This document shows positions 41 through 46,713 of a DNA stretch of 46,713 nt, in pieces (the stretch's first letter is position 1; the number at the start of each line of letters is the position of its first letter). Both the position numbers and the translations under genes were made by a program. The stretch comes from a phage. The notes below the pieces were generated by a model. That model saw only the letters and a program-made list of their open reading frames with translations, was not told the DNA's origin and made no database searches. Location: the sequence record PZ379183.1. The stretch is one strand, 5' to 3'.

Positions 41-562
41 ATGTCAGAACATAAAGAAGCAGTAAGTTTGGGTGAAATCATTCGATACATGGCGAGTCAG
101 GCGCTCAAGTCAGAAGACAAAGTGTGCACAGTCCCTGTGACCATGATTGCTCGTCAATACTTCGGCATGAGTCGTGAGACGTTCGTATCGCTAAGTGGTG
201 AGGAGTTTCTACCTGGTGGTGAATACCACATGCCAAAACTAAAAGCGTCATACGTTTCAAACACCGTAAGCCGAATGCCTGAGATTAAGGCGGCTGACGT
301 GCGCTCAAGGTTCTCACTTAGTTTTACCGACTTTGAGGGCGAGAGTGAGACATACTGCGCATCACTTAGCCTGGTTCCTGGCGCTGTAAAATCCGGCTCA
401 AGAAGCAAAGCAGAGCAAGAGAAGGAGGGGGCTACCATTGAAAGGTTCAAGGCTCGATTGTTGAAACTATCACCAAGCGTCGCTGGTCTTGAAGGTGATG
501 AACTTAAGGGTGCAGTATCAATGATTAACGCATACCAAGAAATGATTAAGGAGACTAAATAG
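41..562 (+). CDS. hypothetical protein (173 aa)
   Basis: Long ORF with GGAG-type RBS a few nt upstream; no recognisable motifs. Confidence 0.5.
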   Translation: MSEHKEAVSLGEIIRYMASQALKSEDKVCTVPVTMIARQYFGMSRETFVSLSGEEFLPGGEYHMPKLKASYVSNTVSRMPEIKAADVRSRFSLSFTDFEGESETYCASLSLVPGAVKSGSRSKAEQEKEGATIERFKARLLKLSPSVAGLEGDELKGAVSMINAYQEMIKETK

Positions 563-4226: not shown

Positions 4227-4299
4227 GTTCTGCTGGCGTAACAGGATAACGCAAAGACCTCCTAAGTCTTAGTTACTGGTTCGAGTCCAGTGCGGAACA
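4227..4299 (+). tRNA. tRNA-Arg (anticodon CCU)
   Basis: Manual cloverleaf fold: 7-bp acceptor stem GTTCTGC/GCGGAAC (one G-U), U8, D-stem GCGT/ACGC with GG in D-loop, anticodon stem AAGAC/GTCTT, loop CUCCUAA (U33, anticodon CCU, A37), T-arm ACTGG-TTCGAGT-CCAGT, discriminator A followed by encoded CCA. Confidence 0.85.
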
Positions 4300-4333
4300 C
4301 CAAATTAAGAAACCAATAATCCTGGGGGATTAA

Positions 4334-26649: not shown

Positions 26650-26665
26650 TTAGCAATTGGTGCTA
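26650..26665 (-). promoter_or_regulatory. TAGCAC-N5-GCTAA motif copy (minus strand, TAGCACCAATTGCTAA)
   Basis: Encodes the C-terminal STNC and stop of the methyltransferase; followed on the minus strand by GATATC-type element and CATTGAAACGAAACACA leader. Confidence 0.5.
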
Positions 26666-27339
26666 TTTGCAATGAAGACGGCTTTTGCAAAACCGCGAGG
26701 AGTTAGGCTGCGAATTACCTTTGTCTTATTGCTCTTCCCGCCTAGCTTCTTGTATTGGTCAGAGAATCCACCGTTAACGTCCACTGGAATTGCCTCTGGC
26801 CATTTAAACCCATTGCCATACCAAATGCATGTCTTCTTGGGATATGCGTCTTTTGGCTTTATTAGGTCGCTAAAAAACGGGTGTAAATCATCTTCCGGCA
26901 AATAGCCTCCGTATTCATATGGGTGGAAGGTGTTATCAGGTTTTCGCCAAAGTGATGACAGTACGCTGATTGGGTTCTCGATCATGTATGGTACTCCGTA
27001 TTTTTCAGCAAGATTAAAAGCAATCTTGCACGTCTCCGCAGCTTCAATTTGGAAGTTAGGGTTAGCTATACACTTGCGTTCAAAGTGTCTTGATCCGCTC
27101 ACGGCTAAGTCAGTGCATGGAGGGAACGCCATTATAAAATCAGGTTTCACATCAAAATCGAAGTCAGCATCTATCCATGCGTTAACGTATGTGATGTTCT
27201 CATGCTCAACCTTTGCATTTAAGTCACTGTAGCTGCCGTGGTCAGACTCATCAAAGTTGAAACAGTAGCAAGTGTGGCCAGCTTCAGCCCAATCCTTTAC
27301 CGCCAGACCAGAACCATCAAATAAAGACCAGATAACCAT
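26650..27339 (-). CDS. DNA (cytosine-5) methyltransferase (putative, short)
   Basis: N-terminal SLFDGSG (SAM-binding motif I), FPPC (Pro-Cys catalytic motif) and IENP (ENV-like motif) in C5-MTase order. Confidence 0.55.
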   Translation of the reverse strand: MVIWSLFDGSGLAVKDWAEAGHTCYCFNFDESDHGSYSDLNAKVEHENITYVNAWIDADFDFDVKPDFIMAFPPCTDLAVSGSRHFERKCIANPNFQIEAAETCKIAFNLAEKYGVPYMIENPISVLSSLWRKPDNTFHPYEYGGYLPEDDLHPFFSDLIKPKDAYPKKTCIWYGNGFKWPEAIPVDVNGGFSDQYKKLGGKSNKTKVIRSLTPRGFAKAVFIANSTNC

Positions 27340-27397
27340 TTTAAAATTCTCTCTCGTTGTTTGTGTTGCTAACTATACCCGGTTTTGCGGATCAGTT

Positions 27398-27413
27398 TTA
27401 GCAATTAGTGCTA
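27398..27413 (-). promoter_or_regulatory. TAGCAC-N5-GCTAA motif copy (minus strand)
   Basis: TAGCACTAATTGCTAA on minus strand about 60 nt upstream of the methyltransferase start. Confidence 0.45.
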
Positions 27414-27439
27414 TGTTTACGCGTAACCGATGTAACTCG

Positions 27440-27720
27440 ATGTATGCAATCTCATCCGCGAAAAATGATATACGCAATGTTACGCCAATTTACGCATTGG
27501 TTACATTAAAATATATATATATATCAACCTTTTACTCTTATTATTATTATTATATATATTACTATGTATATCATGTAACTGCTCTTATGGAGTGTTTCGG
27601 TTATAATTTTAATATCATGTGGATTTATACAGTATTGCGCGGTAGCTATACCAATGCACCCTCAGCAATAAATGATATACATGATATACGCACTATTTAC
27701 ATTGAGCTATAGCTTGGCTC
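27440..27720. repeat. AT-rich iteron and microsatellite region
   Basis: TACGC repeated three times at 10-bp spacing (27474-27500), GATATACGCA copies at 27466 and 27681, (AT)n and (TTA)5 tracts; 85-bp segment 27491-27575 duplicated at 46416-46500. Confidence 0.7.
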
Positions 27721-27883
27721 AGGTACCAAAAAACGTAACTAGTTCCAATGTACACACGGAATTACAAGAATTCACGCGTAAACTTAAATCAACGATTGGC
27801 GAAACCAATTGGACTGGGTGCGGCGCTGAATATATAGTTAAACCATCGAAAGCAAGCAAGCAAGCAAACAGAGAGATACAGAA

Positions 27884-28078
27884 ATGACCTACTACATTAT
27901 CAAAGAGAAAAACAACCCACTGTTCGGAGACTGCTACTTTGGTGGCCCAGCTGGATACACTACCAACAAATCTGAAGCCGACCAATTCGAGACAAAGGAA
28001 GAGGCCAAGGAGTTGCTGACCGGGTACTTCACTGAGGAAGATTTGAAAACAGTTAAGATTGTTAAAATTAAGGATTGA
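27884..28078 (+). CDS. hypothetical protein (64 aa)
   Basis: GAGAGATACAGAAATG start; first gene of the recombination operon. Confidence 0.45.
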   Translation: MTYYIIKEKNNPLFGDCYFGGPAGYTTNKSEADQFETKEEAKELLTGYFTEEDLKTVKIVKIKD

Positions 28079-29814: not shown

Positions 29815-30252
29815 ATGAGTCATGTAATCACTGGTGTTATCCGTCGCGCTCCGTTCACTAAAGAAGGTCAGAATGCAAATGGCAGTTGGAAGATGTACGC
29901 GGTTGATTTAAGTGAGCGTTACAAGGATAAAGATGGTCAATCTCAGTATAGCAACTATCGTGCCGTCTTCTTCGCAAAGGAATCAATGCTTACATGGTAT
30001 AACGAAGCGTTTCAGGAAGGGAAGATTGTTAGCGTAAGTTGTGAGACGTTAGCATTAGATGTTCGAGATAAAGATGGCAAGACTTACATAACAATTAACA
30101 TGAACAATCCTCGTCTTGAGTTTAGTCAGCGTGGTGAGGGTGCACAGCAACATAAAAATACAGAGCAACAACAGCGCCATCAACCGCAACATCAACAGCA
30201 ACAACAACAACAACAACAGCAAAACACATTCGACGGAGATATTCCATTCTGA
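29815..30252 (+). CDS. single-stranded DNA-binding protein (SSB) with poly-Gln linker
   Basis: OB-fold-like N-terminal domain, Gln-rich linker, acidic C-terminal tail FDGDIPF matching the canonical SSB D-D-D-I-P-F tip. Confidence 0.8.
   Translation: MSHVITGVIRRAPFTKEGQNANGSWKMYAVDLSERYKDKDGQSQYSNYRAVFFAKESMLTWYNEAFQEGKIVSVSCETLALDVRDKDGKTYITINMNNPRLEFSQRGEGAQQHKNTEQQQRHQPQHQQQQQQQQQQNTFDGDIPF
30163..30225 (+). repeat. CAA/CAG trinucleotide repeat (poly-Gln coding)
   Basis: Runs of CAA and CAG codons inside the SSB linker. Confidence 0.8.
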
Positions 30253-32900: not shown

Positions 32901-33824
32901 TTAGTTTAGCAAGTCGTTTGCTTTGTACACTTTCTTTCGTATGCCTGTTTTAAATGACTCACCGTCATTAGGAACTACAACATCAACACCCCTATCGTCA
33001 GCAACAGCGAGTATATCGCTATCAGAATCACGGCAAGCAATTCTGAACTTCCTTGACTTGTCGCGGTGGATAACCATCTCCATATTGTAACAGGAGAAAG
33101 CAACAAACACTTCGCGCCCACCAGTAGCAAGGTGAACACGTATGCCATCAATATAATTGTCAACAACATAAGTATAACTATCATCCAGCTTAGAACCAAT
33201 AACGGAAACAGAATCACGAGTGTAATCACCAGCAAGGAACTTAACATTTGAATCCTCATCAATAAACATTACGTTACAGAACTCATCACTAAGCCCATCT
33301 TCATAAACCATCGAACAAGGGATTGCGTGAATCATTGAACAATTTTTAGCTATACCAACATCAAAACCAAACTCGTCATAAATACCCTCGTATGTCGTGA
33401 GTGGACTAGATTCAACTCGCTGAGTCCTCTCCATGACCTCAAGAACTTTCTTGTGGTCTACTTGAGCGCAAATTTTATAACGCTGCGTTCTTGATGCTTG
33501 CTTGTTTGCTTTAACTATAACCTCAATTGGTATTAAGTTCAGCCAGTCACCAAGCAAATTTACTGAATCAGCGAAGGACAATCCAGTGCACTTCATGACC
33601 CATCCTATACCGGAGTCACTTCCGCATTTCGAACAAACTGCCGCGCCATTTCCTTTTTCACTGCCTATTTCGTCGGTAAATCTGAATCTGTCAGTGCCAA
33701 AGCAGTATGGGCATGGTCCGTGCTTCTTACTTAGGTGTCTATCATTCCAACCAAGTTCCTTTGCATAAAATGATTTCCACAATCCGGCCATCTTAGGTAT
33801 AACTTCATTCTTATCGTAATTCAT
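32901..33824 (-). CDS. DNA primase (zinc-finger primase, putative)
   Basis: N-terminal zinc ribbon C-P-Y-C...C-S-K-C followed by acidic catalytic-like region; upstream of helicase in the replication block. Confidence 0.65.
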   Translation of the reverse strand: MNYDKNEVIPKMAGLWKSFYAKELGWNDRHLSKKHGPCPYCFGTDRFRFTDEIGSEKGNGAAVCSKCGSDSGIGWVMKCTGLSFADSVNLLGDWLNLIPIEVIVKANKQASRTQRYKICAQVDHKKVLEVMERTQRVESSPLTTYEGIYDEFGFDVGIAKNCSMIHAIPCSMVYEDGLSDEFCNVMFIDEDSNVKFLAGDYTRDSVSVIGSKLDDSYTYVVDNYIDGIRVHLATGGREVFVAFSCYNMEMVIHRDKSRKFRIACRDSDSDILAVADDRGVDVVVPNDGESFKTGIRKKVYKANDLLN

Positions 33825-34300
33825 TTGCTTAACCCGTGATTTTCGTGAAAGTTGTATTTTCCCTCTGCTTCAATTCTTACTTTATACGCCCGCTCTGGAG
33901 TATCGAAGTTCCCAAGGTGTAGCTGCTTGCCGTCAACCTTGATGTGAGCCTTAAATTTTCCGTGATTTAGCTTTGCCACTCCACAATAACCAGTTGTTGA
34001 TAAAACGCTAAGCTTGCAATTTCTTGAGTTACCTTGATTTGTTGTTACTCTTAGGTTTTCTATTCTGTTATCTAATTTGTTATGGTTTATATGATCAATG
34101 TAGTCGCCATTTTGAAGTTCTCCATTAAACATCTCCCACACAACTCTATGTACATAAGTCCTAAAGCCATTAACAGACACTTTGTAATAGCCAGATGTAG
34201 ATAGTGAGTTGCACTCATCGCCAACCTTAACACGTCTTGCAGTGCTAATCTTCCAATGCAATTTGCCATCTACATAGTAAAAATAATCATGCCAGTTCAT
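33821..34300 (-). CDS. HNH homing endonuclease
   Basis: YVHRVVW...IDHINHNKLDNRIENLR signature; paralogue of 14169..14651. Confidence 0.75.
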   Translation of the reverse strand: MNWHDYFYYVDGKLHWKISTARRVKVGDECNSLSTSGYYKVSVNGFRTYVHRVVWEMFNGELQNGDYIDHINHNKLDNRIENLRVTTNQGNSRNCKLSVLSTTGYCGVAKLNHGKFKAHIKVDGKQLHLGNFDTPERAYKVRIEAEGKYNFHENHGLSK

Positions 34301-34351: not shown

Positions 34352-34825
34352 TTACTCTTTAGCTTTTCGTGCGGCTTCGTTGGCAATCTTATTCTTGCGC
34401 CACGGTCGACAAGGTGGCTTTGTTGCTAGTTCAGCCTCAGTAACCACGCGTAGCATGTGGCGCTTCTTGCATCTAAGCGTCAGAGGCTTACCGTTACCGT
34501 CAAATTGCAGGTCTGGTCGGCAGAAAGTAGCTCGGAACCCTCCCTTATTTCTCTTGTACGCATTATGTGCTCGCTGGGCGCCTCGAGCCGAAATCATACC
34601 GCGATCAAACCATTGTTCTACAGTCTGGTGAGATACATTTAACTGCTTGGCGATATTGGCCTTCGTGCCGTAGAAGTCAAGAACCATCTCCAGACGAGCT
34701 CTTAGCCCAGCCTTTACTTCATCTTTCAATACGTAGTAGCCTGACGGTCGTTTGCGCTGTTTCTTGTCTTGCGTGCGGATGGTTCCGTTATTGCCGTTGA
34801 TAGTTCGCTTGTCAATTTCACACAT
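34352..34825 (-). CDS. Cro/YdaS-like HTH DNA-binding protein (putative regulator)
   Basis: GTKANIAKQLNVSHQTVEQWF helix-turn-helix segment, basic C-terminal region; first gene of a minus-strand operon from a divergent control region. Confidence 0.4.
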   Translation of the reverse strand: MCEIDKRTINGNNGTIRTQDKKQRKRPSGYYVLKDEVKAGLRARLEMVLDFYGTKANIAKQLNVSHQTVEQWFDRGMISARGAQRAHNAYKRNKGGFRATFCRPDLQFDGNGKPLTLRCKKRHMLRVVTEAELATKPPCRPWRKNKIANEAARKAKE

Positions 34826-42566: not shown

Positions 42567-44165
42567 TTACCCCAGCAATCGTGGATTAATGTAAATTTTA
42601 TCACCAATCAGGCATGTGTAGTTTTTCTCATCAAGCATAGGAATCAAGTGGTCCTTAATGCGAGTCATAATTCCAGCCTGAGCTTCAAAAGGTTTAACCT
42701 TGCGTGCAGCCTCATACAACGAGCGAACACCAACAACACCTTTACCATTCTTGCCCTGCTTAATCAGGATATCAACCAGCTTGTTCATCTCGGCATTGTC
42801 ACCAGCATGACCAGCAGCACTAGCGGATGATAAATAAGTCTTGCTTAGTTCGTTGAAAATCATAACCGCTTCCTGCATTGTATCCAGTTCAATCTCTCTT
42901 GACTTTTGAGGGCTGGATCCGGCTGGTGAGAACCAGTTACGAATTACGTGCAGAACAGAAGCGATGCGGATTGCTTGCTTATCAAACTTACCAAGAGCAC
43001 CGCGCAACATTGTGTGAGAATACTTGCCACCATCACCAAGATGAGGCTCCATCTCTTGACGAGCGCGGTTAAGGTAACGCATTGATGACGCGCTTACAGT
43101 AAGTTTCACTTCAACTTCATTCATAATCTCATGAACAAGACGGAAATAGTCTGCTTTCAGGCCGCCATCAATAGCCTCATAGGTTGAATCACCATTTTCA
43201 TCAACAAATACACGGTCGCCAAGAAATGATTTTTCACGCACCAGAAGGAAACGCTCAGATACACCAATACCACGCGCACCAGCATTCATAATGGCATTGA
43301 TTGTTTCATCCTGAGCAATTACGGAGATGCATCCCATAGCCACAAAGCTCATGTTATTTTCTGCGTTCGCACGGGCAATTGACACATTACCTGCATCCCA
43401 TGCTTTCAGCACGAGCTCGCTGTTCGTTTTCTTCGAGCCATCACCGTAAGTCATGCCTAACAGTGAGTTGACGCTAGTAGCCTCATCAGAGATTACCGCA
43501 AAATTACCCTGGCGATTGTTGATTCGCGCAAGACCTTCCGGAGTAGTATCGGAGACAGGGAATACTATATCGCATAGCTTCTCGAGCTTCTCCTCTAAAT
43601 CCTCCTTCTCCTCAAAAAGTGAAGCCATTTCAGAAGGTGATTTCTCCTGCTTCATCTCTTTAGCCAGAGCGGACAGTTTAGCCATAATCTTTTTTCGATC
43701 ACGTTTACGTACTTCATTCAACCGCTCAGTCTCAGCAATCATCGGCGCAATTGATAGCGAGTTAATGGCTGATTTACCAGTTGAAGGCGGCTGACTTGTT
43801 ACCACGTACAAAGATGTTGGCTGTTGGGTTCCATGATACTCGACAGTAAAACGCCCAAGCATTGCAGCAGAAACACAACCAAGAAAGTGCATGTAAGCTG
43901 ACGACTCAGGGAACTGAACCGAGCGAGCGATATTAGCCGATAGCTTACCAACAACATCAATATCATTACCGAGTGAGATTACTGGATACTTATCATTACC
44001 TGTATCAATCTCGACAGGTGCTTTCCAGAACGATTGAGACTGTCGATAGCCATTGGCATTAATAGCCACGCGAAGCGGTGGTAGGTTGTCATTGGCAGCG
44101 ATCGCCATAACTTGCTCAACAGATAGTTTATCTTCATTGAAATCAAACATTACTTCTCTCCGCAT
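42567..44165 (-). CDS. P-loop NTPase of unknown function (Walker A and B)
   Basis: Walker A SQPPSTGKS and Walker B-like FAVISDEA; 532 aa; early-type operon position. Confidence 0.5.
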   Translation of the reverse strand: MRREVMFDFNEDKLSVEQVMAIAANDNLPPLRVAINANGYRQSQSFWKAPVEIDTGNDKYPVISLGNDIDVVGKLSANIARSVQFPESSAYMHFLGCVSAAMLGRFTVEYHGTQQPTSLYVVTSQPPSTGKSAINSLSIAPMIAETERLNEVRKRDRKKIMAKLSALAKEMKQEKSPSEMASLFEEKEDLEEKLEKLCDIVFPVSDTTPEGLARINNRQGNFAVISDEATSVNSLLGMTYGDGSKKTNSELVLKAWDAGNVSIARANAENNMSFVAMGCISVIAQDETINAIMNAGARGIGVSERFLLVREKSFLGDRVFVDENGDSTYEAIDGGLKADYFRLVHEIMNEVEVKLTVSASSMRYLNRARQEMEPHLGDGGKYSHTMLRGALGKFDKQAIRIASVLHVIRNWFSPAGSSPQKSREIELDTMQEAVMIFNELSKTYLSSASAAGHAGDNAEMNKLVDILIKQGKNGKGVVGVRSLYEAARKVKPFEAQAGIMTRIKDHLIPMLDEKNYTCLIGDKIYINPRLLG

Positions 44166-46159: not shown

Positions 46160-46270
46160 GATTTATAGATTGTTGCAGCTATTGCAATGATTCATCTCAT
46201 TATTGCACATATAGCAATATTGCATCGAATGCAATGATGTTTTTGATTGTTGCAGAATTTGCAATGATCG
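46160..46270. repeat. array of TTGCAATGAT direct repeats and TTGCA-based palindromes
   Basis: ATTGTTGCAG-N-TTGCAATGAT at 46160-46185 and 46244-46270; ATTGCACATATAGCAAT and TTGCATCGAATGCAA palindromes between them. Confidence 0.65.
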
Positions 46271-46415
46271 ATGTGGGGTGAATGAATGGTGGATGGACTA
46301 CCATACAAGTTGATTTTGATTCTTGCTGAGCCAATTTGGATATACACGTTATCGAAGTTATGGTGTGTATATGAGGTGCGCTTCCGAAGAATCATACACG
46401 CCTACCACGCTAGAT

Positions 46416-46500
46416 TACGCAATGGTTACATAATAATATCTATATATATCAACCTTTTACTATATTATTATTATTATTATATATATGTATGTATATGGTG
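46416..46500. repeat. second copy of the 85-bp AT-rich element with (TTA)n microsatellite
   Basis: TACGCAATGGTTACATAATAATATCTATATATATCAACCTTTTACT...(TTA)6...TATATAT is near-identical to 27491-27575. Confidence 0.7.
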
Positions 46501-46713
46501 TAGATTGGTCGTATGGATGGGTCGATAGTTTTTCTATGAAAACTACTAATTTTATCTATATAGATACATATGCATACCCCCGGCGAATCCGCGTAAAATC
46601 TTACACAGGGTAATTACACCAGCTATAGCTGGGCTGAGAGGTCAAAAAGCGTAACCAATGCAGATATAAACACAACATAACACTTGATAACGCGTATATT
46701 CATGATACCATGG

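Follow-up and report, generated by a model that had tools for sequence, protein, structure and literature searches.

Where does a T1-like phage begin to copy its DNA, and could the long non-coding gap upstream of its recombination genes be one such place? The question is raised by a stretch of 46,713 bp (sequence record PZ379183.1, the whole of which is hereafter called the window), which makes up all or nearly all of the genome of a virulent siphophage of the T1-like type (Drexlerviridae, Rtp/Rogue-like), and in particular by positions 27340-27883 (intergenic region 1, IGR1). T1 itself belongs to the classical set of seven T phages and is notorious as a contaminant of laboratories. An earlier note, made from the sequence alone, had read the phased repeats and AT-rich tracts of IGR1 as a candidate replication origin or, alternatively, a packaging (pac) site. 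Our analysis suggests that IGR1 and a second region, IGR2 (module copy at 46385-46673), may be paired replication origins, each made of iterons plus an unwinding element and coupled to an early promoter, a reading to which we give a probability of roughly 0.45. The origin proposal survived every sequence-level test that was run and was strengthened by comparison across the family, but an array of operators explains much of the same evidence. No replication origin was found in TLS or SU57 (PMC11447400, PMC7718038), and a search of the literature turned up neither a transcriptome nor a marker-frequency study for any T1-like phage.

The element in question is a module of approximately 390 bp lying between a leftward promoter of the methyltransferase operon and a rightward promoter of the recE operon. 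Its parts in IGR1, including a site for integration host factor (IHF), are the following:
27417-27465: left arm, with the palindrome TTACGCGTAA (27417-27426), the direct repeats CGATGTAAC / CGATGTATG and then CATCCGCGAAAAAT
27467-27505, plus strand: phased iteron array, GATATACGCA, TTACGC, TTACGC and GTTACA, with starts 10 bp apart, conserved in relatives
27506-27571: AT-rich core and candidate DNA unwinding element, with (AT)7, the IHF-consensus core TATCAACCTTTTA (27522-27534), (TTA)5 and TATATATT
27572-27580, plus strand: right-flank iteron CATGTAACT, inverted relative to the GTTACA at 27500
27672-27700, plus strand: second repeat cluster, GATATACAT and GATATACGCA, then TATTTACAT
27705-27757, plus strand: second block common to IGR2, palindrome AGCTATAGCT, then CAAAAAaCGTAAC

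The repeats and tracts that had been reported for IGR1 are all present. TACGC occurs at 27471, 27481 and 27491 and is followed by TTACA at 27501, in the 10-bp phase that had been claimed; the pattern TACGC-N5-TACGC-N5-TACGC is matched once in the window and in none of 100 shuffled versions. The repeated units are GATATACGCA at 27467 and 27683 and GATATACAT at 27674, and the simple tracts are (AT)7 at 27511-27524 and (TTA)5 at 27538-27552. All four copies of ATGTAAC in the window genome lie in the two intergenic regions, which also hold 12 of the 14 TATATA hexamers. At least three phased short sites with an adjacent AT-rich, putative unwinding element, the arrangement of an iteron origin, were therefore found in IGR1.

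The module is duplicated in the same genome. It had been claimed that an 85-bp segment (27491-27575) recurs almost identically at 46416-46500; the duplication holds, whereas the wording overstates the similarity, which amounts to 65 of 85 positions without gaps (76%) or 75 of 87 with gaps (86%). The actual repeat is longer than 85 bp, pairing 27459-27591 with 46385-46517 (136 columns, 80%, E 6e-28), and a second block pairs 27705-27757 with 46621-46673 (74% over 53 nt), collinear with the first. The palindrome AGCTATAGCT is found only at 27705 and 46621. In the IGR2 copy the phased array is degenerate, with ACGC at 46398, 46407 and 46417 and GTTACA at 46425 (TTACA at 46426), so that the spacings are 9, 10 and 9 bp. 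The corresponding features are:
46385-46517, plus strand: IGR2 module copy, degenerate phased array and AT core with TATCAACCTTTTA (46447-46459) and (TTA)5
46621-46673, plus strand: IGR2 copy of the second block, AGCTATAGCT ... CGTAAC
46684-46711, plus strand: probable rightward early-operon promoter, TTGATA-16-TACCAT, read from sequence

Since the window starts approximately 40 nt upstream of the first rightward early gene, IGR2 extends past the last base of the window and reaches the ATG at position 41, and the second copy does lie, as proposed, in another divergent control region. The element at 46684-46711 is probably a sigma-70 early promoter for the operon starting at position 41, and its Rtp equivalent reads TTGATA-16-TAATAT. 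The paralogy of the two module copies is also recognisable in Rtp (83%) and T1 (75%).

Duplex stability singles out the same two places throughout the family. The genomes compared were those of the window, Rtp, T1, TLS, Klebsiella phage Sushi and ESCO41, together with most of JulesPiccard. In all six complete genomes, which cover at least five genera, the two least stable 100-bp stretches are the one upstream of recE and the one in the divergent early region, and both cores stand 4.3 to 6.1 standard deviations (SD) above the genome mean in nearest-neighbour free energy. The IGR1 core is the least stable 100 bp of the window genome (+4.8 SD) and the IGR2 core the second least; the AT fraction of the two cores is 0.84-0.86 (0.86 in IGR1). 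In 80 further recE loci from IMG/VR, the most AT-rich 80 nt were sought within each 4-kb locus and, with few exceptions, were found upstream of recE; two of the exceptional loci have less than 300 nt of upstream sequence. Where the segment lies upstream, its AT content is 0.79-0.90 in nearly every locus, and its distance from recE, -310 to -360 nt, is conserved in most genera. The two-copy arrangement itself is conserved in all genera examined. The earlier note had placed the module between divergent operons, which is correct for the window but does not stand as a general rule: the recE copy follows a co-oriented tail gene in TLS and lies between primase and recE in Sushi. The module therefore goes with the downstream operon and not with divergent transcription.

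The sequence of the module is also conserved: identity in the non-coding core equals that of the best-conserved genes, at 85-91% of nucleotides over approximately 100 phages, and IGR1 matches approximately 120 coliphage records at 80-91% identity. In 13 Rtp-like relatives the left arm (27417-27465) is nearly invariant, the core segment (ATT)4-TATATATATTACT..TGTATATC invariant and the stretch (ATT)4-TATATATATTACTrTGTATATCwTGTAACT almost so; only one of the 13 departs from the common (ATT)n count. Several motifs recur in the core across genera, namely a TATAAT-like hexamer, ATATAGATA, (ATT)3-5 TATAT and TATCTAT. The element TATCAACCTTTTA, present in both cores of the window, is a perfect match to WATCAANNNNTTR, which we take to be the IHF core consensus; on the plus strand of the window this pattern occurs twice, once per core. 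The match is approximate in several other lineages and is replaced in one group (L013). No good DnaA box was seen on inspection of the modules, and no copy of the module outside phages was detected in 5,426 E. coli genomes or 72,556 plasmids. Some of the matching records carry unexpected names, among them 'Campylobacter phage A110b' (MG065688, 86%) and single Pseudomonas, Klebsiella and Enterococcus phages; the host labels or samples of these records are probably wrong.

The repeat around the core, present in up to 13 copies, differs from one lineage to another:
Rtp-like phages: TTACGC/GTTACA/ATGTAAC
T1: GTGTAACA
TLS-like phages: GTGAACA/AGAACA
Webervirus: GTAAGAT, 11 copies
other lineages: GAAACA; GGGACAA (13 copies); ATCCTCCG (9 copies); TACCGCA

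These repeats are enriched approximately 10- to 480-fold. Confinement to the two regions is complete for TGTAACA/TGTTACA in T1 (6/6) and for CCGCGGA in Rtp (6/6), and ATCTTAC in Sushi occurs 12 times in the two regions versus five times elsewhere. When the two copies of a genome were compared by pairing recE loci with helicase loci by contig, the same repeat was found in both (e.g., GGGACAA 9+10, GAAACAA 4+5, TACCGCA 3+4). Repeats that vary by lineage and yet match between the copies of one genome imply a single phage-encoded, sequence-specific reader and concerted evolution. Helical phasing recurs in other lineages, where five tandem units of the ATCCTCCG type (full or degenerate) are spaced at 10-11 bp and GGGACAA pairs at 11 bp. 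In the relatives L041/L125, the two modules are collinear over approximately 550 bp, and the core is flanked by two direct repeats on the left and two inverted ones on the right, with a further inverted repeat pair next to the downstream promoter. T1 likewise has an inverted repeat pair over its early promoter.

The company that the module keeps is best seen in ESCO41 (L166, NC_047820), a mosaic most of whose proteins are 35-66% identical to those of the window. RecE (48%), Erf (44%), primase (42%), the large (TerL, 47%) and small (TerS, 66%) terminase subunits and DUF7174 (39%) are among the divergent ones, whereas the modules are 77-85% identical at the nucleotide level and are matched by the DUF3987 helicase (91%), a helix-turn-helix (HTH) regulator (86%) and a VRR-NUC protein (86%). 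Judged from these identities, the modules of ESCO41 travel with the MCM-like helicase and the HTH regulator and not with the terminase or recE. In the same genome the gene for an SF2 (RadD-like) helicase is split, and an HNH endonuclease gene is adjacent to it.

Two proteins of the window deserve description here:
42567-44165, minus strand: DUF3987 'DNA helicase', predicted fold of an MCM-like AAA+ helicase, winged-helix domain at the C-terminal end (residues 456-526)
41-562, plus strand: DUF7174 gene, the first gene downstream of the IGR2 module

The DUF3987 model is confident (pLDDT, predicted local distance difference test, 87.8) and, in the PDB, its top matches are without exception MCM2-7 or archaeal MCM; a sequence search detects no solved structure. 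In its model, DUF7174 starts with a part resembling a winged helix and ends in a hairpin of helices. The protein evolves fast, and its gene is the first of the early genes that follow IGR2 in the window, Rtp, JulesPiccard, T1, TLS and ESCO41, while the Sushi protein at this position is not recognised by the Pfam model. The family counts 107 homologues, restricted to T1-like contigs. When two relatives of different repeat type are compared, the DUF7174 gene is the sole strongly divergent one beside IGR2. DUF7174 is one candidate for the iteron-binding protein.

The module is flanked by two promoter regions that are not part of it:
27372-27414, minus strand: leftward methyltransferase-operon promoter, box ATAGCACTAATTGCTAAA (27397-27414) and -10-like TATAGT (reverse complement of 27372-27377)
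27772-27838, plus strand: recE-operon promoter region, CACGCGTAAA, palindrome ATTGGcgaaaCCAAT (27795-27809), TGGACT-17-TATAGT (27810-27838), then CATCGAAA

The leftward promoter belongs to a wider set. A 21-nt direct repeat, aaATAGCACnnnTTGnTAAAA, has been described for TLS, with its function listed as an open question (PMC11447400). In the window, 27397-27414 on the minus strand matches the box ATAGCACnnnTTGnTAAA without mismatch, which accounts for that part of IGR1 only. The box occurs 18 times versus 0.5 expected, always oriented with transcription, and its sites include 1181, 3208, 6949, 15365, 26649 (minus), 27397 (minus), 29050, 37334, 40757, 44987 (minus) and 46136 (minus). It is an inverted repeat, TAGCA-N5-TGCTA. 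A -10-like hexamer follows it at a distance of approximately 21-22 nt, more than an ordinary -35/-10 pair would allow, and a small GC hairpin often lies in the gap. One copy of the T1-family repeat is found, like the module, inside IGR1; the repeat differs from the module in being family-wide, associated with promoters and placed outside the duplicated segment. In the recE-operon promoter, the palindrome ATTGGcgaaaCCAAT, unique in the genome, sits where other promoters have the 21-nt box; among the nine Rtp-like relatives alignable at this place, each half-site is unchanged or differs by a single base.

Other candidates for the reader of the iterons were rejected. The HTH regulator (34352-34825, minus strand) has a recognition helix that differs among the window, Rtp and ESCO41 despite their having the same repeats; being conserved family-wide with a helix that varies within one repeat type, it fits the family-wide 21-nt box better, and it is plausible that it binds this box. 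The N- and C-terminal domains of DUF3987 are more variable than its core, but L125 and L129 have similar termini and different repeats. A Pfam scan of 20 small open reading frames (ORFs), 19 of the early region and the 64-aa ORF at 27884, detected no DNA-binding domain.

From the anatomy, duplication, conservation, stability minima and helicase linkage described above, we infer that protein binding, melting, helicase loading and the start of replication may all take place at the module. A phage-encoded protein would bind the lineage-specific repeats on both sides of the core (here TTACGC/GTTACA/ATGTAAC in 10-bp phase), a bend would form at the central IHF-consensus site, and the bound complex would open the extremely AT-rich core, which the MCM-like DUF3987 helicase and the primase would then enter. 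The same protein, on the promoter-side repeats, could couple initiation to expression of recE-erf-ssb at IGR1 and of the DUF7174-led early operon at IGR2, a coupling that would resemble the ori-rep cassette of iteron plasmids. A bolder version, which we consider rather speculative, would give every Drexlerviridae genome two self-contained origin cassettes. Their iterons would be read by DUF7174 as a self-regulating, winged-helix, Rep-like initiator; the MCM-like helicase would be loaded head-to-head by inverted pairs of iterons on either side of the (ATT)n/TATA core, and the second cassette would tie firing to recE-erf-ssb.

A number of observations weigh against an origin at this module. The sequence conserved in the core across genera (TATAAT-like, ATATAGATA, (ATT)n TATAT) seems to be more than a mere unwinding element needs, and repeats at or over the downstream promoters would be equally explained by operator function. 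The lysis genes of ESCO41 are also 84-90% identical to those of the window, and the co-inherited set is therefore not purely a replication block. The search for a reader gave no clean result either: none of the three candidate parts (helicase termini, HTH recognition helix, DUF7174 helix) varies in clear step with repeat type. GC skew follows the direction of transcription and carries no independent origin signal. Finally, DNA synthesis of T1-like phages is heavily recombination-dependent (recE/erf), and a defined origin may therefore matter only in the first rounds.

The alternative to be taken most seriously is that the module is a transcriptional control region whose repeats are operators for a phage regulator, e.g., DUF7174 or the HTH protein. 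The regulator, IHF-type bending and the curved AT tract would form a loop that switches two box-less early promoters on and then off, in the manner of the Mu O1-O2-IHF-O3 region or of repressor-site arrays. We consider this possible, although doubtful. Both copies precede an early operon in the same orientation and at a conserved 290-350 bp from its first ATG, and the two promoters concerned are the ones in the window that have no 21-nt box, which 18 other sites carry. Repeats do reach promoters: T1 has GTGTAACAC-N17-GTGTTACA over a -10 region, and L041 has an inverted pair at approximately -45 to -75. TATAAT-like hexamers also lie at the edge of the core in many lineages, and the fixed (ATT)n count would be in keeping with a spacer constraint in the TTTACT-18-TATATT inside the IGR1 core. 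The hexamers, however, come without a consistent -35 element, and the in-core candidates are weak or differ between the two copies; at IGR2 the site corresponding to TATATT lacks the final T (TATATA), and the spacer of GTTACA-19-TATAAT is too long. Moreover, 9-13 sites over 500 bp, centred approximately 270 bp upstream of the start site, extend far beyond usual promoter control, the two cores mark the most extreme stability minima in each of the genomes examined, and operators leave unexplained that the modules are inherited together with the helicase block and not with the recE operon. Origin and operator roles could also coexist, as they do in iteron plasmids. Were the module without a dedicated function, simply AT-rich promoter or UP-element DNA with chance repeats, or a small RNA gene, one could point to the frequency of AT-rich divergent promoter regions and to the promoter-like appearance of some core hexamers, but the identity over approximately 100 phages, the two-copy arrangement and the enrichment of the repeats largely refute this very improbable reading. 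Nor does IGR1 have an Rfam match at E <= 1, and the single-strand fold of the window core is no better than that of shuffled sequence (z -1.4). The same unremarkable fold speaks against a site of recombination or breakage, at which an AT-rich, partly palindromic core would be extruded or cut (e.g., by the VRR-NUC or an HNH nuclease) and would seed recE/erf-dependent replication. Palindrome-like cores in several lineages (T1 TATACATATAgATATATGTATA, ATAGATA ... TATCTAT pairs), the recombination operon next to one copy and the co-inheritance of VRR-NUC in ESCO41 are in keeping with such a site; the lineage-specific repeats would be left unexplained and the idea is based purely on analogy, so we regard it as most unlikely.

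The packaging alternative of the earlier note is disfavoured by a separate array that lies close to IGR2:
46160-46275: probable pac zone, a TTGCA/TGCAA-rich array with TGCAATGAT three times (46183, 46230, 46260) and GATTGTTGCA motifs

The TGCAATGAT array proper spans 46183-46268, is unique in the genome and is common to T1 and Sushi. The T1 record annotates the terminal redundancy as repeat_region 1-2800; position 1 of T1 corresponds to approximately 46190-46215 of the window and position 1 of Rtp to 46213, and several other records start between 46144 and 46213. The starts of the Rtp, T1, OzMSK, IMM-001, ESCO41 and FP records fall inside or beside the 46160-46275 array, which is, on this sequence evidence, a probable pac or packaging-initiation zone distinct from the AT/iteron module. 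If the module itself were the packaging signal, IGR2 would hold pac and IGR1 a secondary or pseudo-pac, with small-terminase sites around the IHF bend as in lambda cosB. The layout of cosB is indeed one of repeats on both sides of an IHF site, and the T1 left end and the first bases of the other five records named above lie only 170-290 bp to the left of the IGR2 core. The pac site of TLS was also placed, by restriction mapping, in the intergenic region equivalent to IGR2 (PMC11447400). Against this, the ends are located inside a different array, TGCAATGAT three times with GATTGTTGCA, that is absent from IGR1, and IGR1 is 19 kb from the mapped end. Classical T1 work points to a single pac site. 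In ESCO41, furthermore, modules of 77-85% identity do not co-segregate with the terminase genes (TerS 66%, TerL 47%). Given the separate end array and this terminase divergence, we consider a packaging role for the module unlikely.

Replication origins of several known systems offer parallels to the reading that we prefer, that of paired origins. Iteron plasmid origins with an autoregulated rep gene (pSC101, F ori2/RepE, R6K gamma/pi, pPS10) have phased direct repeats beside an AT-rich unwinding region, an IHF-type site in the AT tract and inverted repeat copies at the promoter of the first downstream gene, as seen here. The phage module differs in that no DnaA box was seen, in having repeats on both sides of the core, some of them as inverted pairs, and in being present twice per genome, once before recE and not before a rep-like gene; the putative binder DUF7174, moreover, does not track repeat type cleanly. 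The Bacillus phage SPP1 is a virulent pac-type siphovirus whose oriL and oriR are related in sequence, each with initiator boxes and an AT-rich segment, and whose replication switches to a recombination-dependent mode with an exonuclease, an annealase and a single-stranded DNA-binding protein (SSB). Two related origin-like sites with boxes and an AT segment in a pac-type siphovirus are thus common to both, whereas SPP1 has a known initiator, G38P, with oriL inside its gene, there is no homology, and the phage helicase here is MCM-like and not DnaB-like. In the satellite phage P4, ori and crr are two separated cis regions with the same short iteron, TGTTCACC. The TGTTCAC/GTGAACA repeat of the TLS lineage resembles it and the T1 primase is annotated as P4-alpha-like; alpha, however, is a single primase-helicase-DNA-binding protein, while separate proteins are found here and the helicase fold is MCM and not SF3/D5.

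More distant likenesses concern T4 oriF(uvsY)/oriG and the T7 primary origin, where an AT-rich unwinding element is combined with promoters, origins are multiple and one lies beside a recombination gene; the TATAAT-like hexamers at the core edge of many T1-like lineages are a further similarity. On the other hand, no consistent promoter leads into the core of the window, and T4 and T7 have no iteron arrays. The SV40 and papillomavirus core origins share inverted site pairs flanking an AT tract (in L041/L125) and an encoded hexameric AAA+ helicase, MCM-like in the phage; this is an analogy only, and the terminal domains of the phage helicase do not covary with repeat type. The module would be ordinary in kind, an origin-like combination of iterons with an AT-rich element, of which we found no published description.

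As for the surroundings of IGR1, the stretch of approximately 540 bp is non-coding, as had been stated: 27340-27883 falls between the DNA methyltransferase gene on its left (26650-27339, minus strand, PHROG 757) and, on its right, a 64-aa ORF on the plus strand (27884-28078), after which recE, erf and ssb follow. Rtp and T1 have the same gene order as the window. Three ORFs that overlap IGR1 (27272-27712, 27672-27887 and 27719-27985) are mechanical calls without support and were rejected because the indels in the alignment of 13 relatives are non-triplet and a promoter and a ribosome-binding site lie directly before 27884. A longer annotation of the rtp46 type, as in Rtp, was also discarded, since its frame is not kept in the window. 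Elsewhere in the window we noted a tRNA-Arg (anticodon CCT) at 4227-4302, a (CAA/CAG)n tract at 30143-30224 in the 3' end of the ssb gene, and HNH endonuclease genes inserted in the early (2337-2759) and replication (33821-34300) regions.

The result consists of two cassettes of approximately 300-500 bp at defined coordinates, with genus-specific repeats, and of a few candidate proteins (DUF7174, DUF3987 and the HTH regulator), and it bears directly on the open question of the replication origin in a classical phage family. If the cassettes are origins, they would offer a handle on the loading of an MCM-like helicase in a bacterial system and on incompatibility or exclusion between co-infecting T1-like phages, and could be of use in phage engineering, e.g., for minimal replicons or phagemids for T1-like vectors. 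Should head-to-head loading of the MCM-like helicase by DUF7174 prove true, a bacterial virus would have its own counterpart of MCM loading in eukaryotes and archaea or of SV40-type origins. If the cassettes are operator arrays instead, the early switch of the family would have been defined.

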